Source: Escherichia phage RB43. Taken from it: 64,000 bases of DNA. Location of the stretch: sequence record NC_007023.1; one strand, 5' to 3'. The notes below the pieces were generated by a model. That model saw only the letters and a program-made list of their open reading frames with translations, made no database searches and was not told where the DNA came from. The position numbers and the translations under genes were made by a program. Shown here one piece after another: positions 622-28,432 of this stretch. Every line of letters starts with the position of its first letter. Position 1 is the first letter of the stretch.

Positions 622-1365
622 ATGATTGATGTAATTCGCGTCAAACTCCCTTGTGGGGTAAAACGTTTTCCGATGTTCACTGTACGCGATCAGTTGAGTT
701 TCTTGCTCACCAGCGCGGATATGGAAGGGAAAACATTAACAGAACAGCAGCAGATCCTTGATGAAATTTTAGATATTCTTTATCCGGGTTATTCAAAAAC
801 CGAACAGGAAAATATATTCACTAAGGTTTATTGTGTATCGTTTGGTAAGAACGTCATTAAGATCCGAATCAAAAACAAAGACAGTTACGCAGAAACATTC
901 ATGCAGGTCAAAGACTATGAATTGCAGAATGAATATGCTCTTGATGATTCTCTGACCCTGGGGTTCCGGTTCCCAAAACACAGAAAGAGCAGTGAAGAAT
1001 TGTTCCTTGAATGTATCCAGTATGTCAAGCAAAATGATACCCGTTATGAATGGGAATCACTCGACGAAGACACGAAGAATGCTATACTTGATTTGGTATC
1101 TATCACCGATATGGAAAACATTGTGAAGATGTTACGTAAATCCTGTCATGTTGTCGTTCGCGACCTTGAATTCAGTGATTTGCTTACCCTTTACAAGATC
1201 CTGTTTAACAAATCAGAATTGAATGAGTTCTTCAAGACAAACTATTTGTTAAATAAGAATGAAGTACATATTGAACCTATCATGAATGCAAGCCCGATGG
1301 AACGGTCAATTTACGTTGCAATACTGGCAGAAGATTTAAAACAGAGACAAAATACAAATGCGTAA
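622..1365 (+). CDS. 51: baseplate hub assembly protein, gp51-like (by size and synteny)
   Basis: 247 aa vs ~249 aa in T4; order 51-26-25 on one strand as I recall for T4; RBS GAGG before ATG. Confidence 0.45.
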   Translation: MIDVIRVKLPCGVKRFPMFTVRDQLSFLLTSADMEGKTLTEQQQILDEILDILYPGYSKTEQENIFTKVYCVSFGKNVIKIRIKNKDSYAETFMQVKDYELQNEYALDDSLTLGFRFPKHRKSSEELFLECIQYVKQNDTRYEWESLDEDTKNAILDLVSITDMENIVKMLRKSCHVVVRDLEFSDLLTLYKILFNKSELNEFFKTNYLLNKNEVHIEPIMNASPMERSIYVAILAEDLKQRQNTNA

Positions 1366-1915
1366 ACATACTCCAAAGCATATCCAAAAATATAATGTGA
1401 CTTATCGCCCGTTGACTATTGGTGATGTGAATGACACGGATAACTTCATTTTAGAAGGGAAGGTGTTTAAGCATCAACGCGATTATGTGTATCTTATGGC
1501 CTTGTTTGATTCAATCAATAAAGATACTGTCGACCTACAAATCAAGTGTCCTGATTGCGGTGAACTGATTAAGTTCACGTTAAACCGTCATCATATCATG
1601 ATTGACGAGTTCGAAGAAAAACTCTTCGGTAATGAAATTAAAATTGCGGTCAGCCCGTATGTTACCGGAAAAGAAGAATTACCGGATCTGATTAAGTTTG
1701 TTGTCATCGACGGCGAACAAATCTTATGGGAAGACTGCAAAGAGTCAGAAAAGGAAGCGGTGTTAGATAGCATCGACTATCCGGTCTTTAAATCGATAAA
1801 TACCGCGCTGGAATCCCCAGCAATGGTCGCAAACATTCCGGTCGGGTGTTCGTGTGGCTATAAACACATAGTCTCTCTGCGTGGCTTAGAGGCGTTTTTA
1901 AAGGTGGTTGGATAA
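1358..1915 (+). CDS. 26: baseplate hub subunit, gp26-like (by size and synteny); Cys-rich (CPDCG...GCSCG)
   Basis: 185 aa; overlaps upstream gene by 8 nt; sits directly before gp25. Confidence 0.45.
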   Translation: MRKHTPKHIQKYNVTYRPLTIGDVNDTDNFILEGKVFKHQRDYVYLMALFDSINKDTVDLQIKCPDCGELIKFTLNRHHIMIDEFEEKLFGNEIKIAVSPYVTGKEELPDLIKFVVIDGEQILWEDCKESEKEAVLDSIDYPVFKSINTALESPAMVANIPVGCSCGYKHIVSLRGLEAFLKVVG

Positions 1916-2308
1916 ATGGCTGTTAACCTTCGCTTACTATACAGCGATATCGATCCGAACCTTACGAAAGATTGGAATAAAGATGTTGCCGCCTCGAAAG
2001 GGGCGGCAGCAGTAAAGAACAGTCTGATCGGTATCGTTACTACCCAGAAAGGCACACGTCCTTTCGATAGCAATTTTGGATGTGAGATCGGGGAACAGAT
2101 ATTCGAAAACATGAACCCGCTAACAGCGGAATCAGTACGAACTTCGATTACCTCCGCAATACGAACCTACGAACCCCGCGTTTATAACCTTAATGTTGAA
2201 GTGATCCCGCAGTATGACGAAAACGCGATTACTGTTACGATTTACTACAGCATCATTGATGAACCGGAAGAAGTAGAAAAAATCAAACTCCAGCTTTCAT
2301 CCTCATAA
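1916..2308 (+). CDS. 25: baseplate wedge subunit gp25 (lysozyme-fold)
   Basis: 130 aa; LYSDIDPNLTKDWNKDV...GTRPFDSNFGCEIGEQIFENMNPLTAESV...IKLQLSSS matches the T4 gp25 sequence as I recall it. Confidence 0.85.
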   Translation: MAVNLRLLYSDIDPNLTKDWNKDVAASKGAAAVKNSLIGIVTTQKGTRPFDSNFGCEIGEQIFENMNPLTAESVRTSITSAIRTYEPRVYNLNVEVIPQYDENAITVTIYYSIIDEPEEVEKIKLQLSSS

Positions 2309-2310
2309 CA

Positions 2311-2337
2311 AAAAGCCCCTTTCGGGGCTTTTCTTAT
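2311..2337. terminator. bidirectional rho-independent terminator between convergent gp25 and early block
   Basis: aaaaagccccTTTCggggcttttc hairpin with flanking A/T runs. Confidence 0.6.
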
Positions 2338-2831
2338 TCCATCACGATCCAGCCCATTAGCTGTTGATATCGCAATTCGAACGGGGTGATGAAAGAGCGG
2401 TTATTGATAACCTTCGTCCCGTTGTAGGACTTAATCACTTCCTCACCACGAAGCACATATTCGTATACTTCGTCCATAGTGTCGTAACGCACTTCTTCGA
2501 CTTCGAAGCAGAAGTTGGAATACTCAATCATCCCAATCTTGTTCGCGTAACGGCGTTCGATACAACCCTGTTTTTCAACCAGAGTGATCGCAGTATCAAT
2601 GAACTGCGCAAGTGCTTGCATGAAATTACCACATTCGACTTCACGCCCCCCGCTTGAGATAGCCAGATAAACGCGGCTCAATCCATCATTGCCGATGTAA
2701 CCGATGCAATCACCACCAATGTTAACAGACCACACTTTGCCAATCGGCCCCATACCCATTCTGTTTTCACTGCGAGAAACACCTTTCAGTAACAGTGCCA
2801 TGATGCCGCCGCGAACGTAATTCATTTTCAT
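2334..2831 (-). CDS. hypothetical protein (165 aa)
   Basis: ORF with RBS; first gene of leftward block. Confidence 0.5.
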   Translation of the reverse strand: MKMNYVRGGIMALLLKGVSRSENRMGMGPIGKVWSVNIGGDCIGYIGNDGLSRVYLAISSGGREVECGNFMQALAQFIDTAITLVEKQGCIERRYANKIGMIEYSNFCFEVEEVRYDTMDEVYEYVLRGEEVIKSYNGTKVINNRSFITPFELRYQQLMGWIVME

Positions 2832-2841
2832 GATAAGCCCC

Positions 2842-3072
2842 TTATTTTTTCAGGTTGATTAACCAAGACGGTTGGGTTTCTAAACTAACCTCTTTCCAAG
2901 CATATGCAACACTATAACCGGAATACGTCTGACATACAACAGCATTTTCATTTAAATATTTCACTTTGTGATCTGCCTCTTGTTCATTCAGGGCAGCACA
3001 TACGATATTCTTTTCATACACTCCGCCGTTTGGCTGGATAATTGTTTCTTCAATCAGATAAACGCTGTTCAT
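2842..3072 (-). CDS. hypothetical protein (76 aa)
   Basis: ORF; overlapping stop/start (ATGA) with upstream gene. Confidence 0.45.
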   Translation of the reverse strand: MNSVYLIEETIIQPNGGVYEKNIVCAALNEQEADHKVKYLNENAVVCQTYSGYSVAYAWKEVSLETQPSWLINLKK

Positions 3073-3281
3073 GCTAATTCCTTCTCGATTGCTTCGATGA
3101 TGTGGAGAACATAACCATTCAATCTTTCGGCTTGTTCAGCGGCTTCGATCATACCGTAACGAGGAACTTCTAAAACGTCGAAACCTTCGATCGGGTTGCT
3201 TTCGATATCAACGATGATATAGCTTTCACCGATCACAGCACCTTTTCTCCAGTCTTTTACGAATTTCATTTTAGCGTTCAT
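3069..3281 (-). CDS. hypothetical protein (70 aa)
   Basis: ORF immediately downstream of promoter-hairpin element A. Confidence 0.45.
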   Translation of the reverse strand: MNAKMKFVKDWRKGAVIGESYIIVDIESNPIEGFDVLEVPRYGMIEAAEQAERLNGYVLHIIEAIEKELA

Positions 3282-3284
3282 TTT

Positions 3285-3360
3285 CTCGTTCCTTTTGTCT
3301 GTTCCGTTTCAACACCCCTAATATACAAAAACCCCTCGCGATATGCAAGGGGGTTTTCGA
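3285..3360 (-). promoter_or_regulatory. PeSL-like element A: sigma70-type early promoter (TTGCAT-17-TATATT) with GC hairpin in spacer
   Basis: minus-strand -35 at 3343-3348, -10 at 3320-3325; hairpin CCCCT...AGGGG; member of 6-copy repeat family. Confidence 0.55.
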
Positions 3361-4004
3361 TTAATTAAACTTATTGTACAGCATGAAGTTTACACCGATT
3401 GAACTTAGGGAGGTACAAGCTCGTTCCAGGTCGTCCGCTTCAATTTCGATAACGAATTTCGTTCGTATTAAAGCTGGCGCGACTTCTTCGACAGAAGGTG
3501 TAGTGACTTCTACGACAGGTTTATATACGTTCTTATCATGATCAGGAACATCATCGAGATACTTCAACATTTGATTGATGTATCGTTTATCTGAGTATAC
3601 AAACCGCTTCGCATTCGTCAGAAGAGAACGCATTTTAGAGCGGGTTGTAACTTTTGTACTTTCTTTGTATCCGCTACTTTCGGTGTTAAGAAAGTTTGGA
3701 TTGCTATCCAGCATAATGATAGACGCTAGATTGTTTTTGTGGAAGTATCCCACGAGTTCATTACGAGACTGAGAGAAACAAGCACATAAGCCTCTTCACC
3801 TACCAGATACATTTGTATATGTACTGGCGCTGTAAACATTTTGTTTATGATTTTATGGAATCGAGTGTTTTCCGATAAACTGCGTTGTCTTGTATAACTT
3901 TTGAAAATGTTATCTTTGACAATGGTCGCCATCGTTTCGATGTGGTTTAGCGATTTCCCAAGTAACGGGTTCAGAAAAACTTCTTTTTTCGGTACATAAG
4001 CCAT
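3361..4004 (-). CDS. hypothetical protein, apparently split by a frameshift (ORFs 3361-3753 and 3726-4004 overlap near an A5 run)
   Basis: Two overlapping same-strand ORFs, both frames open across the junction ~3740-3800. Confidence 0.3.
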
Positions 4005-4020
4005 ATTTCAAATTCTCTTT

Positions 4021-4311
4021 TTAGTGCATGAAAGATTTAACGTACTTCAATATTTCTTCACGACATGTGTCAACGCTTGTGTTTTCGGCAATCATAGCAT
4101 GACAAAGTATCTCACCGTCAAGCCAAAACGTCAGCATGTATTGAATATCACGACCTTCTGTTGCTTCCTGATGATACTTGATTTTCGCGAAAGCAGTTTC
4201 GATACTTTCGGTTACTGTCAACATTTCGGAATCACCATCTACAGCAGCCATTTCCCCAGCTTCTTCGCTGAATTCGCTTTCCAGTTCTTCCCAGTATACT
4301 ATCGTTATCAT
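4021..4311 (-). CDS. hypothetical acidic protein (96 aa)
   Basis: minus ORF preferred over mirror plus ORF 4024-4314 (Phe/Cys-rich, atypical). Confidence 0.4.
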   Translation of the reverse strand: MITIVYWEELESEFSEEAGEMAAVDGDSEMLTVTESIETAFAKIKYHQEATEGRDIQYMLTFWLDGEILCHAMIAENTSVDTCREEILKYVKSFMH

Positions 4312-4444
4312 TGATTACCCCAAACATACTTTACATTTGCATAAAGGGCATTCAGCCTCTTTGATGCGTAGACGTTTCGTTGTTGTCTTCTTCTCCGTAT
4401 TGTGATCATATACATGAAGACAACGGAAGCAGATCACCCAACGT

Positions 4445-11290: not shown

Positions 11291-11992
11291 ATGCTAATAT
11301 CAGCAAGCAGTGTAGACGAATTGAACAGCAAGGTCAACGAAATGCTGTCACAAGGGATGTACTTATGGGGAAGCCCGTTCGTTGTCCCATCCGATTATCT
11401 GAACCAAACACGATTCTTTCAACAGGTTTCAAACGTAAATCCTTCGAGCGGCGGAACCGATGGAAAGAGTGCGTATCAACTATGGGTTGAACAACCAGGC
11501 AATGAAGGGAAAACACTAGATGATTTCTTTGATTCCATTGCAGGGGTTCGCAAAAAATCAGAGGTGTTCTGGACGGGGCTTAGTCTGGTGATCCCAGAGG
11601 ATACGCCGACCAACTTCATCAACCTGATTAAAGGGACCATTCCGACTACCGGAACATTAGAACCGTTCTTCAAAATTACAGACAATAAGTTACACCCGTT
11701 TAACGAAAACTCAACATTAACGTTTAAGCTGAACCTGAAAGGTACTTTCACAGGGGCAACAACCGCACAGCGTAGCGTTACACTTGATTTTGTCGGTACA
11801 CAGGGCAACACCCTCACTCTGAACCGCAGCCAATCGGTAACTACTAGCACCCTTTCTTTCGTCACGTTCTTTAGTGTCGATAAAAACGGAAATATGGTTA
11901 CTAATGGTACTGCATTCAACATTTTCGCAAACGGTAGCCCGTTTACTGTATCCGAAGTTCTTTTAGTCGCCGAACAGCGTACTACTCAATAA
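11291..11992 (+). CDS. putative virion/tail-fiber-like protein (Thr/Asn-rich, GKSAYQLW motif), opposite strand to surrounding early genes
   Basis: 233 aa; GGTDGKSAYQLWVEQ resembles fibre-protein motif; RBS AGAGGG; near-consensus late promoter upstream; bidirectional terminator downstream. Confidence 0.5.
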   Translation: MLISASSVDELNSKVNEMLSQGMYLWGSPFVVPSDYLNQTRFFQQVSNVNPSSGGTDGKSAYQLWVEQPGNEGKTLDDFFDSIAGVRKKSEVFWTGLSLVIPEDTPTNFINLIKGTIPTTGTLEPFFKITDNKLHPFNENSTLTFKLNLKGTFTGATTAQRSVTLDFVGTQGNTLTLNRSQSVTTSTLSFVTFFSVDKNGNMVTNGTAFNIFANGSPFTVSEVLLVAEQRTTQ

Positions 11993-14179: not shown

Positions 14180-14565
14180 TTGTTAATAAACCTTAACGTA
14201 ACGTGCAGGGATTCTAACACTCGTGCGTCAGTACCGTCAATAATCATCATTCCGATAAATTCTTTAGAGCTAACGGAATACATGCGACATAACAGGGAAC
14301 CATCTTTCGCGATATATTCAACGATATACTCACGGCGTGATGATTTGAACGAATCACCGACCATGACCGGACGTTCGACATTCTGGCGTTTTTTGGCTGT
14401 ATAACACAACTCGTTTTCGCCGTTTGGTGCGCAATCTTTACTTCCGATCGACATATCCGTTACAGTAACAGAATTCACAGAACCGCCGATCAGTAAGCTG
14501 GGTTCGCCAGCACCTACTTTCATGATTAGTGTCGAACGGTTTGCAACGGTTTCAGTCACAAACAC
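14176..14565 (-). CDS. hypothetical protein (129 aa, GTG start; possible upstream extension)
   Basis: ORF; 32-aa upstream ORF in another frame suggests possible frameshift. Confidence 0.4.
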   Translation of the reverse strand: MFVTETVANRSTLIMKVGAGEPSLLIGGSVNSVTVTDMSIGSKDCAPNGENELCYTAKKRQNVERPVMVGDSFKSSRREYIVEYIAKDGSLLCRMYSVSSKEFIGMMIIDGTDARVLESLHVTLRFINK

Positions 14566-14716
14566 GTAGCACTGTGGATTCGTTTTCTTTGGCGATTGAC
14601 TGCAAAATGAATTTGGTCTTCTCAGGCGTTCTCGAATGTCCGATTTAAAACACGATCACCGATCGTCAATGTTGTGGTTGAATCGACATCTTCGGTAGTA
14701 CGAATAATTGCTGTTT

Positions 14717-14986
14717 TCATGATAATTTCCTCTCAAATTCTTCATCAGATTTCCAGTACACGTTAAAGTTACGGCAATCGTGATCAGAAGTCAACGTATA
14801 TTTTTCATTTGTTTTTTCATCGGTGATAACCATCGTTTCATTCTCGATCGAGTCAACACCGTACACAAACACTTTGTCACCGCGTTTATTCAGGAACGCA
14901 TCACCTGTTTCAATCAACTGCCAGCAACTAACTGGCAACCCGCCCGAACAGATCGGACGGTTTACTAAACAGTAAGGATGTTTCAT
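14717..14986 (-). CDS. hypothetical protein (89 aa)
   Basis: ORF. Confidence 0.45.
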   Translation of the reverse strand: MKHPYCLVNRPICSGGLPVSCWQLIETGDAFLNKRGDKVFVYGVDSIENETMVITDEKTNEKYTLTSDHDCRNFNVYWKSDEEFERKLS

Positions 14987-19711: not shown

Positions 19712-20200
19712 GATAAATCTACCGTTTTCATGTTAACGTAGGGATCGAAATGTACCACGATGATTGGATAGTCGCCAGTGGCCTTATCAATGATGTCATA
19801 GATGCGCATCCAATCGCCCCCAGCAAGCCCCGCACCAATAAGAGGGGTAACGATAGGCAATTGAACAGGACACGCCTTAGCGCGTTCTACAGCAGATTTG
19901 AAGCATGATTCAATCGCATCATAATCGACTTGTGGGCCTTCACCCCAAAATTTGTATTGGGTGTACGCGTTAAACAGAAGTTTGTTTCCGTCCTGATAAA
20001 CGGAGTTACGCCCCAACTTAGATTGATTGCCCTTCATCGTCATTGCGTCTTCTTTAAACGCACCAGGGATCTTTTTCTTCACTTCTTTGGCGATACCCGC
20101 GCCCATGTTACCAGAAACCAGTTACCACCCCATGAATTAGGTGTACATCGCGATTAAGGAACAGTTCAACCGCGTTACCTTTGATTTCTTTAATGATCAT
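19708..20200 (-). CDS. macro-domain (ADP-ribose-binding/processing) protein, apparent frameshift near 20107-20120
   Basis: Upstream frame MIIKEIKGNAVELFLNRDVHLIHGV... joins MGAGIAKEV..., reconstructing an HGxN(C)xxxMGAGIA macro-like N-terminus. Confidence 0.45.
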
Positions 20201-20292
20201 TGTTTATTACCCATTCGATAGCCGATCCCAATAACCAGCCCCATTATAATCACAACAGTGATCAGTATTGCAAATTGCATACCTATGCTCAT
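20197..20292 (-). CDS. possible 31-aa membrane peptide
   Basis: MSIGMQFAILITVVIIMGLVIGIGYRMGNKQ; ATGA overlaps on both sides. Confidence 0.25.
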   Translation of the reverse strand: MSIGMQFAILITVVIIMGLVIGIGYRMGNKQ

Positions 20293-20435
20293 TTGAATTG
20301 ATCATCCCATATTTGCCACGCTTCCAGTTCATCATTGTATTCAGGTAATGAACGTTCGCCAGGCTTCATTAAACAGTACCATATGATAATTGCAACAGCA
20401 ATAACCATTCCATAGAAAATAATTAGTCCTATCAT
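20289..20435 (-). CDS. possible 48-aa membrane peptide
   Basis: MIGLIIFYGMVIAVAIIIWYCLMKPGERSLPEYNDELEAWQIWDDQFK; ATGA coupling. Confidence 0.3.
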   Translation of the reverse strand: MIGLIIFYGMVIAVAIIIWYCLMKPGERSLPEYNDELEAWQIWDDQFK

Positions 20436-20758
20436 CAATATAATCCTATTCCGGCGTTGTACTCGTCAACCAAGTAGGTACGCAACTTTTCACAACGTTC
20501 CTTATTTGGTGCGCTAGTACATAGTTTCATCATCGGTTCAGACTGCAAAAACTCACGCTGTTTAGCCAGCTTTTGACGCTTAACCAGGTGCGCGTTTTCT
20601 TCGCCCCACACATAAGCAGCGTCCAGTTGTTCCGCGATCACCTGATAACATACAGCAGTATCTTTAATGTCGCGATGGTCGCAGAGTTCAGAAAGACGGT
20701 TGTCGTCTGCATACGCGAAACCAGAAACCAGAGTCAATAAAAGCGCAAGTTTTTTCAT
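20435..20758 (-). CDS. small secreted protein (signal peptide ...GFAYA|DD)
   Basis: 107 aa; N-terminal signal sequence. Confidence 0.5.
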   Translation of the reverse strand: MKKLALLLTLVSGFAYADDNRLSELCDHRDIKDTAVCYQVIAEQLDAAYVWGEENAHLVKRQKLAKQREFLQSEPMMKLCTSAPNKERCEKLRTYLVDEYNAGIGLY

Positions 20759-20759
20759 G

Positions 20760-21425
20760 TTAACCTCGATATGTCACGTCTTCGATAGGGTTATAGTAAT
20801 GATTCTTGCAAATATACGCAAGTGTTTTTCGTAGGCTTGCGCTGGCAAACAGAGGATCGCGGTTGTACGTCATAGAACGATAGGTGTGTACTTCCCAGAC
20901 TTCCCGATCAGTATCATACACGAAGCAATAGCTTTCATATTCAGACAGCATATGATCCATGATGTCGAAATACAGTTGTTTGTTTTCGTTCATCTTAACA
21001 AACGGCTTGATCAACTTGATTGCTTCATAAACCTGGTCAAGATTGCTATGGTCTTCATTCATCGCAACACGAATAACTGATTGATTCGTGTCTGGATTAT
21101 ATGTGTTGGTTGCAACACCAAGTTCATAAAAGAAGTTAGCAGCATCGCGATATGTTTCACCACCAGTGCGGGGAGAATTCAGGTAATACTCAATACGTTT
21201 TTCTACAGAGGAACTCCGCATAATGACGGCCTTTATGTCATCAATTCGTTCCTGCAAGTCAATACGCTTTTTGTTTAGTTCCGTAGCACGTTTTTGGAGT
21301 GGTTCAAGCTGGGTTCTTACTTCGTCAAACTCACTTGTAATGGCTGTCAACTGCTTTTCTAAGGTTTGGCTCAACATAGAAGTTGCGTTTTCGTTTACCT
21401 TATTCATAGCTTCTGCGTATGTCAT
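20760..21425 (-). CDS. hypothetical protein (221 aa; N-terminal coiled coil)
   Basis: ORF. Confidence 0.5.
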   Translation of the reverse strand: MTYAEAMNKVNENATSMLSQTLEKQLTAITSEFDEVRTQLEPLQKRATELNKKRIDLQERIDDIKAVIMRSSSVEKRIEYYLNSPRTGGETYRDAANFFYELGVATNTYNPDTNQSVIRVAMNEDHSNLDQVYEAIKLIKPFVKMNENKQLYFDIMDHMLSEYESYCFVYDTDREVWEVHTYRSMTYNRDPLFASASLRKTLAYICKNHYYNPIEDVTYRG

Positions 21426-21427
21426 GA

Positions 21428-21829
21428 TTATTCCCCTAATACATATTCAAAACGATGTTCCAGCGCATCATTAACGCTTTCGTAAACTCCCCCAATACGT
21501 GTAGCCTTACGAATGCCGGACTTGACAATATTCATGATCTCGACGTTACTACCCCAAACATTCAGGTTGAAATACAATTCGCAATCGATCGGATGGTCGT
21601 TTGTGTCGTAATACATGTCACAACCTTCGCAAACAAACAGTGTACGCTTTTCGTCGCCATACTGGAAGTGAATGTTAAACGCAGACATACTATCTTTATC
21701 AACAGTAATGTCAATGATGCGAACCTTTGGGTTGCTTTTCAGTTCGGTAAGAACACTTTGGATAACATGCAGAGTGTTCAGCTTGACAATCCCTACTCTG
21801 CCTACAATGACTCGATGTGATGTACTCAT
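21428..21829 (-). CDS. hypothetical protein (133 aa)
   Basis: ORF downstream of promoter element F. Confidence 0.5.
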   Translation of the reverse strand: MSTSHRVIVGRVGIVKLNTLHVIQSVLTELKSNPKVRIIDITVDKDSMSAFNIHFQYGDEKRTLFVCEGCDMYYDTNDHPIDCELYFNLNVWGSNVEIMNIVKSGIRKATRIGGVYESVNDALEHRFEYVLGE

Positions 21830-21896
21830 AATTTAATCCTCAATGGTTGATGCACACATAATAAAAAAGCCCCTGCAAAAATGCAAGGGCTTTTGA
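21830..21896 (-). promoter_or_regulatory. PeSL-like element F (TTGCAT-17-TATTAT with hairpin GCCCCTGCA...TGCAAGGGC)
   Basis: -35 at 21881-21886, -10 at 21858-21863 (minus strand). Confidence 0.5.
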
Positions 21897-22532
21897 TCAA
21901 ATAATTTGCTTTTCTTCTAACAGTTTCGCGGTATGGTTAACCATGCGAGCATATTCACGGGCTTCTTTCTTTCCATACTTAAAGCCAGCGTTATAACTCG
22001 CGAGCGCCTTTTTCAAGTCGCCTTTGTGGTAATCAAGCCAGTATTCCAGTTCATGAATAGCGTACTTAGAACCGCCCCGAAGGGTTTCAAGCGTTTTGAT
22101 TACTACGCGTTTGGAATATGATTTATCCATCCGTGCTAAAGCACTATTTGCGGTTACTTGCCAGCACCCGTAAGCGTGATGACCTTTCTTACCCTTTCCG
22201 GTGTTCTCACATGCGCGAGACTCGATCCAGGCAATAGCCGCTAAATGATATCCCAAACGTTTCGATTGTTCCGTTTCAACAGGTTTTGCAGTTTTGAGAT
22301 CATACTCGTTTCCGATCCTGAAAGCATACTCCAAAACCTTTTTCTGCTTTGGTGTAATTTCGTCCAGTTCCTTCACATATGATGGTGCTTTCTTGATCAC
22401 TGTTGCTTGTTGAAGCGGTAATGTTGACTGATAAGCCGGAAGTTTTTCGATGAATTCCCCAAGCGGATCTGTCTTTGCGTGACCAGAAAAAGAGCATAAG
22501 AAAATGCTGGTCGCTAAAATAATTTTCTTCAT
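21897..22532 (-). CDS. periplasmic lytic transglycosylase-like protein (SLT-type)
   Basis: Signal peptide; SLT-like AIAWIESRA...AYGCWQV...SYNAG. Confidence 0.6.
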   Translation of the reverse strand: MKKIILATSIFLCSFSGHAKTDPLGEFIEKLPAYQSTLPLQQATVIKKAPSYVKELDEITPKQKKVLEYAFRIGNEYDLKTAKPVETEQSKRLGYHLAAIAWIESRACENTGKGKKGHHAYGCWQVTANSALARMDKSYSKRVVIKTLETLRGGSKYAIHELEYWLDYHKGDLKKALASYNAGFKYGKKEAREYARMVNHTAKLLEEKQII

Positions 22533-22584
22533 TGATTAATACCTTTTGTAACAAGAGAGGGCAATGATACCCTCGCCTTATTAT

Positions 22585-23145
22585 TTATGCAAGTACAATC
22601 TTGCATTCCACCAGTTGATTTTGAATGAATTCAGCAACGTTATAGTTCATAATAGAACGGTTTGCATCATACAAAGCAACCAGGTCTTCAAAAGAAACCT
22701 GAACCACTTTTTCGAAGTGTGTACCCCAGTTAGTAGCAAGGATCTCTTTGTTGTCAAATCCACAGTCAGGACTGAATATGGCACGATATTTGTAACCAGA
22801 ATAATCCCGAAGACGGTTAACATTATGCGCGTTGCTGGTAATCAAAAACTGACCATGTTTAGTTTGAACAACGAAGAAATAACCAAAGAGTTCCTCACTA
22901 CCAAACATATTTTCGAACTTATTGATTTTGTCTTCTTTATCAACACGGGTTTCGATCATCTTCCAGACCTGTTCATATTCAGGCCAATCGTGTTCAACAA
23001 CAACCGCTTTCAGTGGTTCCTTTCCGCGTTTAACGCGAGATTTTTCTAATTTGCGCAACAGCGCACGAAGTTTCAGTTGATCATCATAATCCATATGATC
23101 CGTATCTGAAAGTTTGATTACAGCATAACGATTTTCACGATTCAT
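22585..23145 (-). CDS. hypothetical protein (186 aa)
   Basis: ORF. Confidence 0.5.
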   Translation of the reverse strand: MNRENRYAVIKLSDTDHMDYDDQLKLRALLRKLEKSRVKRGKEPLKAVVVEHDWPEYEQVWKMIETRVDKEDKINKFENMFGSEELFGYFFVVQTKHGQFLITSNAHNVNRLRDYSGYKYRAIFSPDCGFDNKEILATNWGTHFEKVVQVSFEDLVALYDANRSIMNYNVAEFIQNQLVECKIVLA

Positions 23146-23318
23146 TTCACAATCACCTTATTAGAACAAACCGGACAAGTGATCACGCGGTAGGTGTCTC
23201 GACCACCAGTGTAATCGGTATGAACTTCTTCACGCACATCAGATGCGACGTAAGACAAACGAGATTCACATTTGCGGCAAGTAACCTCTTTTGGCTTCAT
23301 TTCAATGACTTGTACCAT
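23142..23318 (-). CDS. small zinc-ribbon protein (58 aa; CxxC...CxxC)
   Basis: MVQVIEMKPKEVTCRKCES...ITCPVCSNKV; below ORF-track size cut-off. Confidence 0.4.
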   Translation of the reverse strand: MVQVIEMKPKEVTCRKCESRLSYVASDVREEVHTDYTGGRDTYRVITCPVCSNKVIVK

Positions 23319-23325
23319 AATAACC

Positions 23326-23523
23326 TCAGTTCAATTTTAATTTAACTTCACTACCGCATTTCGGGCAGGTAATGAACTTTATCACTTTGTAGTCAGCAGC
23401 ACGATAGAAACCATTGTAGATAGGTTTCGTCCTGCCTTGAATGTCTTCAAGTTCGTATTCTAACCCACTTTTGCAGGATTCGCAAACAGTAATTAGCTTT
23501 GGTGATACAATAACGTTAATCAT
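23326..23523 (-). CDS. small zinc-ribbon protein (65 aa), paralog of 23142-23318
   Basis: MINVIVSPKLITVCESCKS...ITCPKCGSEV; start at ATG 23521-23523. Confidence 0.45.
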   Translation of the reverse strand: MINVIVSPKLITVCESCKSGLEYELEDIQGRTKPIYNGFYRAADYKVIKFITCPKCGSEVKLKLN

Positions 23524-23560
23524 ATATTCCTCACGAAAAAAGGGGCCGAAGCCCCCTTTG

Positions 23561-24910
23561 TTAAAAGTTATCTTCGACGAATGCAGCGAGTCGCCCACGA
23601 TATACGGTATCCAGGATCACATGACTTGAATGACCGTACTCTTTAAGTTTTTCAACCGCATACACAAAACCGTTGTTTACGGCAGTGTTGCGCGGGTTGT
23701 CAATCTGTTTAATGTTCCCGCATAGTATCAGAAGTGTGTTCTCACCGCAACGGGAAATGATGGATTTAATTTCGTGATTGCTCAAGTTTTGACATTCATC
23801 AACAATCAGAACGGAACCTTTACCCGGATCAGGATGCCCGATTGAGCGCCCACGGAAGTAATACAGGCTGGGGAACTGTACAACGCCTTTCTCTAACAGC
23901 CCTTCGACGTACTTATCAACTTCCGGTTGATCTTTAAACAGAATGTTCAGGCTTGTAATACATGGTTCAATAGACGGTCGTAATTTTTCTCCCAGTGTAC
24001 CAGGTAAGAACCCGATTTCGCCCGACAGTGGGCTATCCGATTTTACATACATCACATTAGCAAAATGACCAGCATTTACCAGGTGCATAGCACCAGCAAC
24101 CGCCAGCATTGTTTTACCGGAACCAGCCGCGCCCATAATGGTCACTGCATCAATGTTTTTATCCAGAATGGAATCAACGAAAGACGCTTGCAACGCATCG
24201 CGAGGTTGAATTGTTTTCATCAGCTTGCGTTTCATCAGGTGTTCGTGTTTCAACGGCAACACTTCAAGCTGAAACTCTCCAGCATCCACCACACGCCCGA
24301 CAACCTCACCATAGGACAGGATGTATTGGTTAGGGTAGAAATCTACCTTGTAGTCGGCAAACGACGCATAGCTAATCAACGCAATATCGCCATTGTACCC
24401 AACAACATCAACGATGTTCCAGAAGTCGGTCAGTTCAATATAACCGGAATACAGAACATCACTATCTTTCAGTGTGTCATCGCCCGTGTACTGTTCAACA
24501 GGACAACCCTTAGACATTGCGATCAACAACATATTGATATCGCGGGTTACTAAGGTCGCTTTCTCCTGCAAACAGGTAGCGATAATGCGAGCATCTTGCT
24601 TATCAAGCGGGAACTCTTCACCACCGACATAATCGACGATACGCAGAGTAACGCTATCGGGTAAAGCTGGGTTTGTTTGGCCCAACGAAACCCCAGTTTG
24701 GGTAATTGCTTCATACTTCTGTCCCAGGACAATTTTAGACAGAAGTCGGATCACTAAACGTGCTTCGCGGGAAGTGTGTTCCTTTGATTTCAGGTGATCC
24801 AGTTCTTCCATTGTTGCAGCGGTAATGATGATCTCAGTACCAGGGGCAACATAAGAATAGATTGAATATGGGTTCGAGATTAAAACGTTGGTATCTAGAA
24901 CATATTTCAT
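23561..24910 (-). CDS. phoH: PhoH-family ATPase with N-terminal PIN domain (YlaK/PhoH2-like)
   Basis: PIN-like MKYVLDTNVLISNP; Walker A GAAGSGKT; Walker B LIVDECQNL. Confidence 0.85.
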   Translation of the reverse strand: MKYVLDTNVLISNPYSIYSYVAPGTEIIITAATMEELDHLKSKEHTSREARLVIRLLSKIVLGQKYEAITQTGVSLGQTNPALPDSVTLRIVDYVGGEEFPLDKQDARIIATCLQEKATLVTRDINMLLIAMSKGCPVEQYTGDDTLKDSDVLYSGYIELTDFWNIVDVVGYNGDIALISYASFADYKVDFYPNQYILSYGEVVGRVVDAGEFQLEVLPLKHEHLMKRKLMKTIQPRDALQASFVDSILDKNIDAVTIMGAAGSGKTMLAVAGAMHLVNAGHFANVMYVKSDSPLSGEIGFLPGTLGEKLRPSIEPCITSLNILFKDQPEVDKYVEGLLEKGVVQFPSLYYFRGRSIGHPDPGKGSVLIVDECQNLSNHEIKSIISRCGENTLLILCGNIKQIDNPRNTAVNNGFVYAVEKLKEYGHSSHVILDTVYRGRLAAFVEDNF

Positions 24911-25029
24911 AGAAGTTTTCCTGTTAATTGCGAGGTACGCGGATTCGCACCCCGCGTACTGCAATTACATACCCAAACGGATAATGTGAATGTATGGGAA
25001 AGGATGCAGGTTACTATTTCTCATGCAGA

Positions 25030-25422
25030 TCATGAGTGTTTGAACCAGTTCCCAACGGTCATCAAATTTTGTATTACATTCATCAAAATCAGATTGATCG
25101 CCTGATGCTTGATACTTCTACCACGAAAGATTGTGGTTAAATCCTGTCTAGCAGACAGCAGCATCAGATTTTCACAGTCGGCTTCATATCGTTGGGCTTC
25201 ACCTACTGCAAGTTGCTTTGTCGGGGCAACATAGATGTTCAGTGTACCTTTCGACTGTCTGATAATTTCAAACGCCGCTTTCGTTTTACCAGATCGACGG
25301 CCCATATCAAGCGCCGTTTCAAACGCCGCAACGCCCGTTGTATCTGCTTGTCCTTCCATTACGCGCATCAGGTGCATATTGCGCGATTGCTTAACAGCAT
25401 CAACGTAAAATTTTGAAAACAT
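25030..25422 (-). CDS. hypothetical protein (130 aa)
   Basis: ORF; GRRSGKT is only Walker-A-like, not canonical. Confidence 0.4.
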   Translation of the reverse strand: MFSKFYVDAVKQSRNMHLMRVMEGQADTTGVAAFETALDMGRRSGKTKAAFEIIRQSKGTLNIYVAPTKQLAVGEAQRYEADCENLMLLSARQDLTTIFRGRSIKHQAINLILMNVIQNLMTVGNWFKHS

Positions 25423-25431
25423 GGTGAGTCC

Positions 25432-25827
25432 TTATGCAAGTTCAATATGCGGTGCGTCGATGAATTTTGTTTCGATCGGAAGATTAGGATCATTCTTCCA
25501 GTTGATACCGAAACGCAGTTTCACACCGAGTTCATCACCAGCTTTTTTCATTGCATTCAGAACAGGCAACCACACTTTCGGGTTTTTCTGCCAACCTTCC
25601 GGCAGTTTGCTAGGATACAGATCCACAGCATCGCCTGTAATGTGTTTTGAATTCATGGTTTGTGACGCGCCAGTGCGAACGTATTCGCGTTGCTGTTCGA
25701 CGGTACGCAATCCTTCACGTACACCGAAATCTTCTGGGGATAGCTCCAGAGCGCGTTGTACAACCTTAACCAGTTCAGGTTTAACACCTTTCAGGTTATT
25801 GATACTTTTTTTGGCTAATTTAAACAT
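25432..25827 (-). CDS. peptidase M15 family peptidoglycan hydrolase (L-Ala-D-Glu / D-Ala-D-Ala peptidase); endolysin candidate
   Basis: 131 aa; Zn-ligand pattern SKHITGDAVDL and DAPHIEL. Confidence 0.7.
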   Translation of the reverse strand: MFKLAKKSINNLKGVKPELVKVVQRALELSPEDFGVREGLRTVEQQREYVRTGASQTMNSKHITGDAVDLYPSKLPEGWQKNPKVWLPVLNAMKKAGDELGVKLRFGINWKNDPNLPIETKFIDAPHIELA

Positions 25828-25893
25828 ACATACCTCTTTATGAAAATACCCTATGGGTTACACAGGGTATTTACGGTTTAAGAGGCGCAACGA

Positions 25894-26316
25894 TTACATG
25901 TCGTACAGAGCATCTTCCGCACGACGAACGATCCATTCACGGTGCATTTTACGGCTAGTCTCTCTCAGTTCGGGAGGGAGTTGGTCGTTGTTGATTTGGT
26001 CAACATATTCCTGTGCATCTTTTTTACTCAGGAAAAGTGCGTGGAAGTTATAATTATTGCGCCCTATTACATTGTGGTCCATTAAAGACATATGTTGACG
26101 ACCTTCCCAATCATCATAAACGGTGATCGCGTCAACGAACAACCCTATACTCAAGTGCTGGAAAGGTAATCCAGTGATAATTTTTTTGGGACCCATTTCA
26201 GCTTTAACACCATTGATGCTAAAAACTTCATACAGGATAGCGCCAGGTTTGATGTCTTTAAGTTGAGCACGTTTTTCAAAAGCATTCATAATATATTCCT
26301 CACAATTAGTTTTCAT
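25894..26316 (-). CDS. hypothetical protein (140 aa)
   Basis: ORF. Confidence 0.5.
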   Translation of the reverse strand: MKTNCEEYIMNAFEKRAQLKDIKPGAILYEVFSINGVKAEMGPKKIITGLPFQHLSIGLFVDAITVYDDWEGRQHMSLMDHNVIGRNNYNFHALFLSKKDAQEYVDQINNDQLPPELRETSRKMHREWIVRRAEDALYDM

Positions 26317-26344
26317 ATACAGATTATCATAATCTGTTTTGGTG

Positions 26345-26665
26345 TCAACAAGGTTTATCGTTTTTTGATGGAAAAGTTAACTGGAACAGGCGATCATGTA
26401 GTGCGTCGATGCGTTCACATGCCTGTTTCAGTATGACTTTATCACCCGCGCTTGTTGTCTCAATGCAGCCTAATTCGTCTGCGTCGATCGCTATAACGTC
26501 ATCCATCAGGGAAGCAAAAACGTTAGCGTCAGGGTGTGTCAGTTCCTGTATCTCCGCTTGCATCCCGTCATGTTGGGATAACAGTTCAATGATATCTCTT
26601 TGCAGATCTCCCTGGTACGGGAAGCCTGTTTGAAGATGGTTAATGATTCTCTCTGCTTTGGTCAT
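26345..26665 (-). CDS. hypothetical acidic protein (106 aa)
   Basis: ORF; terminator hairpin 26676-26698 upstream. Confidence 0.5.
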   Translation of the reverse strand: MTKAERIINHLQTGFPYQGDLQRDIIELLSQHDGMQAEIQELTHPDANVFASLMDDVIAIDADELGCIETTSAGDKVILKQACERIDALHDRLFQLTFPSKNDKPC

Positions 26666-26702
26666 ATTTCACCTACAAAAAAGCCCCTTTCGGGGCTGGG
26701 AA

Positions 26703-26966
26703 TTAAAGGTCTTTACACTGACAAACACCGTATTTGCTGAAAGGCTTTTCACCGCTCAGGTAAGACCAGAAGTCGCAAGCCTGTTCAGCGGTTTCGAAGA
26801 TTGCAGCATCATAGAAGCCGTGTTCTTCGTTACCTTGTTCATTGAGGAACACAGGAAGCCAGCTTTGAGGTTTGTAGCAGTCAGTAACAACTACCCAACC
26901 TTCTTTCGCTTTCATCGCTTCTTTGTTCGCTTCAACCATTTCCAGCATTTCGTTCAGTAAGTTCAT
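26703..26966 (-). CDS. hypothetical protein (87 aa)
   Basis: ORF. Confidence 0.45.
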   Translation of the reverse strand: MNLLNEMLEMVEANKEAMKAKEGWVVVTDCYKPQSWLPVFLNEQGNEEHGFYDAAIFETAEQACDFWSYLSGEKPFSKYGVCQCKDL

Positions 26967-27040
26967 TTTTAATCCCCTTTGTTAATCCGTTTCGTTGTCT
27001 ACGAGAGAGATATTATCACAACGGGGATCTATGTCAACAC

Positions 27041-27310
27041 CTATTCGAAACGAATCGTGCTATTTTTGAAAAATAATCCAGAGCATACCGCACCAGCGAT
27101 CGGCTTACCGTTTACACCTGTTGCGGTGAATCCGGTTGCGTATGTATCCTTTTCAGAACAGGAAAACCAGCTATATCCTGTGAACTGAATATTCGAATAC
27201 CCTTGCGCTTCCAGGATACGTTGTGCTTCTCGTTCATCGGTACAGCCTGATTGCAATAAAACGAGAACCACAACCAGTAATACACATCCAATAACTTTAA
27301 ACATAATCAC
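27041..27310 (-). CDS. putative lipoprotein (signal peptide with ...LLQSGC lipobox-like site)
   Basis: 89 aa; hydrophobic N-terminus ending at Cys. Confidence 0.45.
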   Translation of the reverse strand: MIMFKVIGCVLLVVVLVLLQSGCTDEREAQRILEAQGYSNIQFTGYSWFSCSEKDTYATGFTATGVNGKPIAGAVCSGLFFKNSTIRFE

Positions 27311-27753
27311 ACTCTTTTTAAGTTGGTTTTACTTGCTTGAACCCAGCTAACACCTAACGGACCACCACGGAAACCGCTGATAGCACCGAGACATACAGTT
27401 GTATGGCTAAACGTGTTAGGTAAATCGACCTGGTTATCGGGAGAGATACCCAAATCGTGTACGCTTACATCAGTTGCATACAGATAACCACCAGACACAT
27501 ACAGGGAATTGATTGAACCGTAAGCATCGTTAGGCCATTTAAAACGGTATTTGTCGCCCCATAGTTCAACTTCATACACCTGATATTCATCGAACAGAGG
27601 ATCATTACCCTTTGTTGCTGTATAAAGAGCACTACGCCATTCATACAACTTTGCTTCAATGTCACTGACATTGATTTCTTTGCCAGCGCTTAAATCATCA
27701 AGCACCTGTTCAAGTTTGCGGATTGCCCCGCTTAATTCATGAGAAAGATTCAT
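27307..27753 (-). CDS. hypothetical protein (~148 aa)
   Basis: ORF; start probably internal Met (MNLSHE). Confidence 0.45.
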   Translation of the reverse strand: MNLSHELSGAIRKLEQVLDDLSAGKEINVSDIEAKLYEWRSALYTATKGNDPLFDEYQVYEVELWGDKYRFKWPNDAYGSINSLYVSGGYLYATDVSVHDLGISPDNQVDLPNTFSHTTVCLGAISGFRGGPLGVSWVQASKTNLKRV

Positions 27754-28109
27754 ACAATACCCTCTTCTTCTAGCACTTCCCAAATAAGTTTATCCATGTG
27801 CATTAGGTTCCACATAACAGAGTCATACGAACCCAGTGAGCGGGAGTAAATTACACCCCAGGAACGATACGCTTTTTGAAACTCTTCCGCGCTGTTTGTA
27901 TCGCACGGCATATCATCACCAGAAGCGATCAGAAGTTTCAGAACCATCAGACTATTGAGCAGTTTTGAACTTGCGTCCTGTTCTCTCAGTTTAGACCAAT
28001 ATCTTTCGATAATCGCTTTTGCTTTCGGTTCAGTAATACGTCCGTTGTTACAACGTTCACGATACGCATACATCAGTTCATCGAGTATTTCGGTCATAAC
28101 ACACCCCAT
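27750..28109 (-). CDS. hypothetical protein (119 aa)
   Basis: ORF. Confidence 0.45.
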   Translation of the reverse strand: MGCVMTEILDELMYAYRERCNNGRITEPKAKAIIERYWSKLREQDASSKLLNSLMVLKLLIASGDDMPCDTNSAEEFQKAYRSWGVIYSRSLGSYDSVMWNLMHMDKLIWEVLEEEGIV

Positions 28110-28432
28110 TTACTTTTGATTCTGCTGCATTCTTCCTCACACTCTTTTTCCGCAAGGATTTTGCGAACAACAGTATTTCTGATTTTCCAGAGATAATCAA
28201 TCATCTGCATATCTTCGGGAGTGTGATAACCTTTCATATCACATTCAAATACGATAGCATCGCGTTCTGACATTGCCATTATCGCGGTAGCAGAACAAAT
28301 GGTCATCCCACTATATTTTTCAATCAACGATTCCAGTGTACGCTTTTCTGCCGGAAGGTCAATAGTTATCGGAACAGGACGGATTCTTGTAGTTGAATCG
28401 TCAAAGGATTGATAAATCATATCATCCACCAT
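28094..28432 (-). CDS. hypothetical protein (112 aa)
   Basis: ORF. Confidence 0.45.
   Translation of the reverse strand: MVDDMIYQSFDDSTTRIRPVPITIDLPAEKRTLESLIEKYSGMTICSATAIMAMSERDAIVFECDMKGYHTPEDMQMIDYLWKIRNTVVRKILAEKECEEECSRIKSKWGVL

Follow-up and report, generated by a model that had tools for sequence, protein, structure and literature searches.

Phage RB43 encodes a PIN-domain PhoH-like ATPase with the domain architecture of PhoH2

The gene RB43ORF157c of Escherichia phage RB43 encodes an N-terminal PIN-type nuclease domain fused to a C-terminal PhoH-type ATPase domain, with the catalytic and ATP-binding residues of both intact. The best-supported explanation is that the product is a phage enzyme of the PhoH2 type, and we consider it probable that it would act by the same molecular mechanism as mycobacterial PhoH2, because every residue class that this mechanism needs is retained together with the same domain order. 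RB43 is a Pseudotevenvirus, a T4-like phage of the Straboviridae, and we analyzed a window of 64,000 nucleotides (64 kb) of its genome record, NC_007023.1, to which all positions below refer.

The PIN-PhoH fusion in RB43 is real but already known, since it was tabulated in 2006 and then discussed in two comparative studies. The RB43 genome paper lists a "PhoH-like protein / PIN domain" for RB43ORF157c (Nolan et al., 2006). A later survey described the fusion of the PIN_4.COG1875 group to PhoH "in bacteria and bacteriophages", which gives rise to the PhoH2 proteins, with 22 members from dsDNA viruses (Matelska 2017), and PIN-PhoH fusions in jumbo phages were discussed thereafter, where their role was called "enigmatic" (Iyer 2021). 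The UniRef name of the RB43 protein is "PIN domain-containing protein", and the GenBank notes of its relatives read "contains PIN domain-like and P-loop NTPase domains" and "NYN ribonuclease and ATPase".

The coding sequence occupies 23561..24910 on the minus strand and specifies 449 amino acids plus the stop codon, as given by the ORF list, the translation, the RB43-GVA annotation (CCL97620.1) and a 100% identical protein (P0001). The earlier note had placed a PIN-domain PhoH-like ATPase at 23561–24910, which is exactly the annotated coding sequence; the strand, which it left unstated, is minus. In the ORF list, the minus-strand frame extends over 23561..24964 when counted from the first TTG, and the ATG of MKYVLDTNVL lies at 24910. 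RB43-GVA annotates the same ATG as the start, under the product label "protein of unknown function". The beginning M-K-Y-V-L-D is common to all phage homologues in the alignment, and a Shine-Dalgarno sequence, AGGAAA (24917..24922, minus strand), lies 7 nt 5′ of the ATG and is identical in Citrobacter phage Maroon. We dropped the longer TTG start (24964) on the grounds of this shared beginning and of the Shine-Dalgarno sequence at the ATG; in addition, the extension would cross a conserved hairpin and run into the preceding gene's stop codon. An antisense ORF at 24065–24553 (162 a.a.) has no PHROG match and was therefore treated as spurious. A 2.5-kb stretch around the gene is essentially identical to RB43, with a 1-bp length difference from two RB43-GVA records. 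Its identity is 97.5% with Buttiauxella phage GuL6, 93% with RB16 and near 80% with many phages of Klebsiella, Enterobacter, Citrobacter and Cronobacter.

The domain matches are far beyond chance. The PIN domain, of the PIN_4 type, spans residues 1–141 (24488..24910, minus strand) and is supported by Pfam, the alignments, a profile alignment to SMG6 and the structural model. Pfam PIN_4 matches residues 3–141 over model positions 1–131 of 132 and scores 57 bits, where the gathering score is 21.9 (E 3.2e-15). It is followed by a linker (approximately residues 145–150, modeled with low confidence) and a small beta-rich middle domain (approximately 157–219), which together occupy 24215..24487 and were delimited from the AlphaFold2 models and the invariant columns. 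This middle domain matched no known fold that could be assigned, and its region contains the invariant residues G156, F163 and W164. The PhoH P-loop ATPase domain comprises residues 233–449 (23564..24214, minus strand), as supported by Pfam PhoH (residues 234–433, 114 bits, E 6.5e-33), by Foldseek and by PDB entry 3b85, which matches with E 5.9e-20 in a single-sequence search and 5.2e-40 with a profile.

Residue conservation was read from alignments of 18 and 72 sequences, comprising phage and gamma-proteobacterial homologues. The PIN acidic residues D6, E36, D106 and D124 are invariant among the 72 homologues. When the family profile was aligned with the human SMG6 PIN domain (2hww), these four residues fell on the DTN, ELD, (N)DD and (T)DD motifs and corresponded to the SMG6 catalytic residues D1251, E1282, D1353 and D1392 (as listed in Matelska 2017). 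In the ATPase domain, the Walker A motif GAAGSGKT (residues 260–267; 24110..24133, minus strand) has invariant A262, G263, G265 and K266 and nearly invariant G260 and T267, and the Walker B acidic pair D371-E372 within LIVDECQN (23795..23800, minus strand) is invariant, as is Q374. Other PhoH motifs are also invariant or nearly so, including Q241, GFLPG (300–304), RGR (353–355), R387, GN..QID (398–404) and R438. Just N-terminal of Walker B, a 6-a.a. insertion (in GHPDPGKG, approximately residues 357–364) occurs in the T4-like phage clade only.

The AlphaFold2 model of the full-length protein (mean pLDDT 85.6) is divided into a five-stranded alpha/beta PIN unit (1–141), the linker, the middle domain and the RecA-like ATPase. 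A separate model of residues 1–232 (pLDDT 87.8) retrieved only PIN-domain structures, namely PINA, MJ and AF PIN proteins, SMG6, VapC, the Rrp44 PIN domain, Nmd4 and HARP/PRORP, so that, as judged from the predicted structure, the N-terminal domain has a PIN fold. The designation as a PIN-domain PhoH-like ATPase is borne out by Pfam PIN_4 and PhoH together with intact Walker A and B motifs. The earlier note had named two findings that would speak against it, the absence of the PIN catalytic residues and an N-terminal domain unrelated to PIN. Its interpretation stands, because both were looked for and the opposite was found: all four acidic residues are present, and the N-terminal model resembles PIN structures exclusively.

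The structural matches also connect the two halves of the protein with eukaryotic nonsense-mediated decay. SMG6, a single-strand RNase, belongs to the same PIN_4.COG1875 group as the PhoH2 PIN domains (Matelska 2017), and the PIN domain of Nmd4 bound to Upf1 (8rd3) was among the structural matches of the N-terminal model. When the ATPase half was searched against the PDB with Foldseek, it matched the PhoH2 domain of Corynebacterium glutamicum (3b85) and domain 1A of the SF1 helicases RecD2, Upf1 and Dna2. The logic of RNA decay by a helicase plus a PIN nuclease is conceptually the same in both systems, whereas the eukaryotic factors are separate polypeptides and Upf1 has two RecA domains against one in PhoH.

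Some of these matches could be read as pointing to a DNA-directed enzyme, which would act on branched or flapped DNA in recombination-dependent replication, or on host DNA, in the manner of the archaeal PIN-ATPase PINA or of FEN-type PIN-like members. Foldseek placed PINA (5f4h, "RuvB-like Holliday junction helicase") among the top matches of both models, and RecD2 and Dna2, which the PhoH domain resembles in their 1A domains, are DNA helicases. However, the PINA matches had low TM-scores of 0.22–0.41 and 11–12% identity in both models, and the PINA-type ATPase and the overall fold of PINA (PIN, ATPase and KH) are not matched by the RB43 protein. The NCBIfam model PRK13764 ("ATPase") touches residues 1–141 only, with E 0.03. 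Moreover, the characterized PIN_4.COG1875 members SMG6, Swt1 and PhoH2 cut RNA (Matelska 2017), and the only PhoH2 proteins studied biochemically act on RNA (PMC7390352). We consider a DNA-directed function decidedly unlikely, and the substrate of a PhoH2-type enzyme in RB43 would be RNA, not DNA.

The relationship to PhoH2 extends over the entire protein. The NCBIfam model NF053827, "RNA 5'-3' helicase PhoH2", aligned with residues 2–447 over model positions 3–421 of 427 (E 2e-27), and the middle region falls inside this end-to-end alignment. With PIN_4 at the N-terminus and PhoH at the C-terminus, the label "YlaK/PhoH2 architecture" given previously is right. The NF053827 score, 96.3 bits, is under the equivalog cutoff of 680, and on its sequence the RB43 protein is classed as a PhoH2 homologue of the same architecture but not as an equivalog of the characterized enzyme. 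The database search returned phage homologues with 46–100% identity, a metagenomic/jumbo-phage group with about 39%, and gamma-proteobacterial "PhoH family" proteins with 33–36%, all with full-length coverage and with both PIN_4 and PhoH present. Substrate specificity is not transferable from the characterized enzymes, because of the score (96 bits versus 680) and the 33–36% identity to the bacterial proteins. A PDB search for a full-length PhoH2 structure found the ATPase domain 3b85 only.

Among known systems, the mycobacterial and actinobacterial PhoH2 proteins (M. tuberculosis Rv1095, M. smegmatis; NF053827) share with the RB43 protein the collinear order of PIN, linker and PhoH, the same catalytic acidic residues and Walker motifs, and the match of the ATPase domain to 3b85. 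The RB43 form differs in coming from a lytic phage, in lacking an upstream phoAT-like gene, in the 6-a.a. insertion before Walker B and in a PIN insert shorter than that of the bacterial forms. The closest cellular homologues are the gamma-proteobacterial PIN-PhoH proteins (Shewanella, Vibrio, Pseudomonas putida and Aeromonadaceae), which align over 100% of the length and, like the RB43 gene, are encoded by stand-alone genes without an antitoxin; they differ in being chromosomal and in carrying a 10–30-a.a. insertion in the PIN domain that is missing from the phage form. The PhoH2 proteins of M. tuberculosis and M. smegmatis have been reported to bind RNA, to unwind it with ATP and to cut it in a sequence-specific way, and their PhoH domains were proposed to form a hexameric ring through which single-stranded RNA is threaded towards a second ring, made of the PIN RNases (PMC7390352). 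By analogy with this biochemistry, we infer coupled RNA helicase/nuclease activity for the RB43 protein.

Under the PhoH2-type reading, the small beta-rich domain of the RB43 protein would connect an N-terminal metal-dependent PIN endoribonuclease with one PhoH ATPase of the RecA-like type. A single RecA-like domain is not sufficient for helicase action. As judged from the homologous mycobacterial PhoH2, the PhoH ATPase domains would most likely assemble into a ring, which would bind single-stranded RNA and use ATP to drive translocation and the unwinding of structured RNA. The ring would then pass the strand to the PIN active sites, which would cut it. During infection, such an enzyme would probably turn over or process RNA of the host, of the phage or of both; turnover or processing of host or phage transcripts is suggested by the position of this predicted stand-alone nuclease-helicase in the T4-like tk-vs-endolysin cluster.

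Such an enzyme might alternatively serve stable RNA, maturing or remodeling rRNA, tRNA or ribosomes in the manner of YbeZ-YbeY or of protein-only RNase P rather than degrading mRNA. In E. coli, the PhoH-like ATPase YbeZ pairs with the RNase YbeY, an rRNA-maturation enzyme that it binds (PMC5101352), and the N-terminal model also resembles the HARP/PRORP PIN-like RNase P enzymes. These matches were weaker than those to SMG6 and VapC, however, and RB43 shows no tie of the gene to translation genes and no tRNA gene in the 64-kb window. A role in stable-RNA processing appears very unlikely to us.

The gene sits in a densely packed minus-strand cluster that runs from the endolysin gene to vs.1, vs and tk. 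The order is endolysin, a 152-a.a. phrog_2586 gene, PIN-PhoH, two tandem Zn-ribbon paralogues (phrog_2834), a 186-a.a. ORF and vs.1, followed further on by vs, tk and rI. Five nucleotides past the stop codon, an intrinsic terminator is found in the sequence (GGGGGC-UUCG-GCCCC followed by U6; 23536..23556, minus strand), which the phages Maroon, Matisse and Phynn retain with an altered loop and stem and which is an annotated terminator in Matisse. RB43 PIN-PhoH stands alone, with its own Shine-Dalgarno sequence, and closes a transcription unit at this conserved terminator.

The 54-nt spacer upstream of the gene contains a 9-bp hairpin, GUACGCGGG-GUGCGAA-UCCGCGUAC (24935..24959, minus strand), identified by RNA folding, with an outer stem reaching out to 24926–24966 and without a U-tract. 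Its folding energy is −25.7 kcal/mol over 86 nt (z −2.5). The hairpin is identical in Citrobacter phage Maroon despite flanks that are about 81% identical, and in Phynn a hairpin of different sequence occupies the same place. Matisse carries an inserted HNH homing endonuclease gene in place of the spacer, between the phrog_2586 gene and PIN-PhoH. The hairpin had no Rfam match, and no Rfam family was found anywhere in 20000–28000. The terminator and the upstream hairpin, together with the pre-Walker B insertion and the missing bacterial PIN insert, are minor phage-specific traits. Sigma-70-like promoter matches were as frequent as expected from shuffled sequence, and the minus strand of 23500–28200 contained no strict T4 late (TATAAATA) or MotA-box motif; since no promoter could be assigned, any timing proposed for the expression of PIN-PhoH is a guess.

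PIN domains are typical toxins (Matelska 2017). The scans with PHROGs and Pfam found neither an antitoxin nor a DNA-binding domain in the upstream 152-a.a. phrog_2586 protein and no antitoxin-like (phoAT- or VapB-like) partner among the RB43 neighbours. No gene accompanies PIN-PhoH in every one of the contexts compared (RaK2, a 349-kb metagenomic contig, Shewanella, P0030, P0033 and Phynn), no RB43 neighbour recurs in the RaK2, 349-kb contig or Shewanella contexts, and the gene of the Shewanella homologue is monocistronic. We rejected a phoAT-phoH2 or VapBC-type toxin-antitoxin module, as a short adjacent antitoxin gene is absent, and the mycobacterial phoAT-phoH2 arrangement is inapplicable to RB43 because there is no antitoxin-like or shared neighbour.

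The toxin-like character of PIN domains belongs to a wider proposal, in which the protein would serve in conflict, as a weapon or shield against RNAs of co-infecting phages, host defence transcripts or RNA components, or as a toxin-like factor for host shut-off. In Synechococcus WH8102, a host PIN-PhoH restrains cyanophage Syn9, and the mutant gives a higher burst (PMC5490813). The jumbo-phage copies adjoin SIR2, NAMPT and Nudix genes, which are tied to NAD metabolism. On the other hand, RB43, whose protein shares 30–39% identity with these copies, has neither a SIR2 gene nor an antitoxin-like neighbour, and the SIR2 linkage may have no functional basis and stem from common descent among related jumbo phages. 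The PADLOC matches cover only a short generic P-loop of about 40 residues (PDC-S53, Nhi and AbiO); no PADLOC model of a known anti-phage defence protein matched over its full length, and this identity was rejected. A conflict role for the RB43 protein is, in our estimation, unlikely.

PhoH matches occur in 1,849 of 50,697 phage records. The long PIN-fused form, taken as a match over at least 80% of the query length, accounts for approximately 313 of these, and the short PhoH-only form makes up the majority (approximately 1,500 of the 1,849). The long form spans Pseudotevenvirus, Slopekvirus, several jumbo phages, and Bacillus and Campylobacter phages. PHROG 2765 (phrog_2765) matches the full-length RB43 protein with E 1.7e-165, and its other phage members have the same architecture, as in Pseudotevenvirus, Slopekvirus KP15/Matisse, the jumbo phages RaK2, E9.1 and pEa_SNUABM_44, Bacillus phage Skywalker and Campylobacter phage CPt10; the annotation of RaK2 ORF506 notes its similarity to RB43ORF157c. 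The PhoH-only family phrog_170, the form of the cyanophage phoH gene, matches residues 227–442 only. Its members share 27–32% identity with the ATPase domain over residues of about 225–445, but lack the PIN domain that the RB43 protein has.

This division into families bears on the name "phosphate starvation-inducible PhoH", which would imply an auxiliary metabolic gene for phosphate starvation. The name occurs in database annotations only, whereas the domain content is that of a nuclease with a helicase-like ATPase, the long PIN-fused form and the short PhoH-only form fall into separate PHROGs, and no phosphate-uptake genes are adjacent to PIN-PhoH in RB43. We disfavour this explanation as hardly credible.

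The position of the gene invites a comparison with the T4 endoribonuclease RegB, whose gene lies directly upstream of vs.1, within the e-tk region. RB43 PIN-PhoH is located four genes upstream of vs.1, separated from it by the two Zn-ribbon ORFs and the 186-a.a. ORF, and the Phynn PIN-PhoH lies two genes upstream of vs.1. Both are thus phage RNase genes, the RB43 one by prediction, in the same vs.1-to-endolysin neighbourhood, whereas the two proteins have no relationship in sequence or fold. RegB is small and ATP-independent, with recognition via ribosomal protein S1, according to a T4 annotation note. RegB was found neither in the 64-kb window of RB43 nor by whole-genome tblastn, in which the best E-value was 1.7. 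It was likewise missing from the syntenic loci of Maroon, Matisse and Phynn, in a search in which the T4 positive control was found, and it is present in 1,138 other phage records. A literature search returned no statement on RegB in RB43. As a speculative extension, to which we give little weight, PIN-PhoH in Pseudotevenvirus and Slopekvirus phages without a T4-type RegB may be a dedicated mRNA-decay engine that would inactivate early or host transcripts, as RegB does in T4, but with ATP-driven unwinding, and the jumbo-phage copies may be part of a SIR2-linked module. The pattern is compatible with a functional substitution, but it counts as a single evolutionary observation, because the phages concerned belong essentially to one lineage.

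PhoH-family genes are among the commonest unexplained phage genes, and the PIN-fused long form offers the clearest mechanistic prediction among them, that of an RNase with ATP-driven RNA unwinding. RB43 is a convenient system for testing phage PhoH function, because it grows on E. coli. If the speculative extension were true, phage "PhoH" genes, which have long lacked an explanation, would encode factors of RNA turnover, an idea open to testing in a tractable E. coli phage.

We examined the genes flanking PIN-PhoH, the PIN-domain PhoH-like ATPase of RB43. The gene adjoining it on the upstream side, the phrog_2586 gene (window 24965-25423, minus strand), carries a frameshift in the window as compared with RB43-GVA, the RB43 annotation used for comparison, with an A4 run in the former versus A5 in the latter at 25089. 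The product is 130 a.a. in the window ORF versus 152 a.a. in the GVA frame, which matches the full phrog_2586 profile (120 bits, versus 93 bits for the window) and is kept in the related phage Phynn. Either the original RB43 record contains a sequencing error at this A run, or the mutation is genuine. The intact protein contains a Walker A-like motif, GRRSGKT, and a Walker B-like motif, LIFDEC, and the frameshift is located exactly at the latter. The protein may represent a mini P-loop NTPase that has so far gone unrecognised.

A strong hairpin (window 24926-24966, minus strand) lies between this gene and the PIN-PhoH Shine-Dalgarno sequence, directly 3' of the phrog_2586 stop codon as read in the GVA frame. 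Its core consists of 9 bp (GUACGCGGG/UCCGCGUAC) closed by the loop GUGCGAA. Conservation of the RB43 hairpin in Citrobacter phage Maroon is 100%, versus ~81% identity in the flanks, and in Phynn a hairpin of another sequence occupies this position. The RB43 hairpin lacks a U-tract, matches no Rfam family, and might function as a site of processing, as a stability element or as a translational operator. In the Slopekvirus Klebsiella phage Matisse, an inserted HNH homing endonuclease gene (11461-11985) separates PIN-PhoH from the phrog_2586 gene, and the adjacency found in RB43 and Maroon is therefore lost.

Directly downstream of the PIN-PhoH terminator, two tandem paralogues on the minus strand (window 23326-23523 and 23142-23318) encode small Zn-ribbon proteins of 65 and 58 a.a. 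(CxxC...CPxC; both phrog_2834). Matisse has a single copy, and Phynn none. Further along is a Vs.1-like protein with an SLT/lysozyme-like domain (window 21897-22532; Matisse 14206-14847), noted in the Matisse record as 'similar to T4 endoribonuclease RegB'. This remark looks like an annotation slip, since tblastn with T4 RegB gave no match in the Matisse vs.1 locus and regB adjoins vs.1 in T4. The RB43 endolysin (window 25432-25827, minus strand) is an L-alanyl-D-glutamate peptidase of the M15 type (phrog_465), rather than a T4 e-type lysozyme, which fits the description of RB43 in a review as having 'no apparent gene e'.

In four jumbo-phage-like loci, RaK2 (977-4434), L010 (1038-5335), L013 (2871-5377) and L014 (2897-5362), a SIR2-domain gene is found on the same strand as PIN-PhoH, 0.3-3 kb upstream of it. 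These SIR2-domain genes share 35-58% identity with one another; a SIR2 homologue is absent from RB43. The ORF directly upstream of PIN-PhoH in RaK2, L013 and L014 encodes a homologous protein of ~100 a.a. that carries conserved cysteines and a hydrophobic helix at its N-terminus. A NudE gene lies in between in RaK2, and a NAMPT gene is also present in L013. The linkage of SIR2 and PIN-PhoH could represent a functional module or merely shared ancestry.
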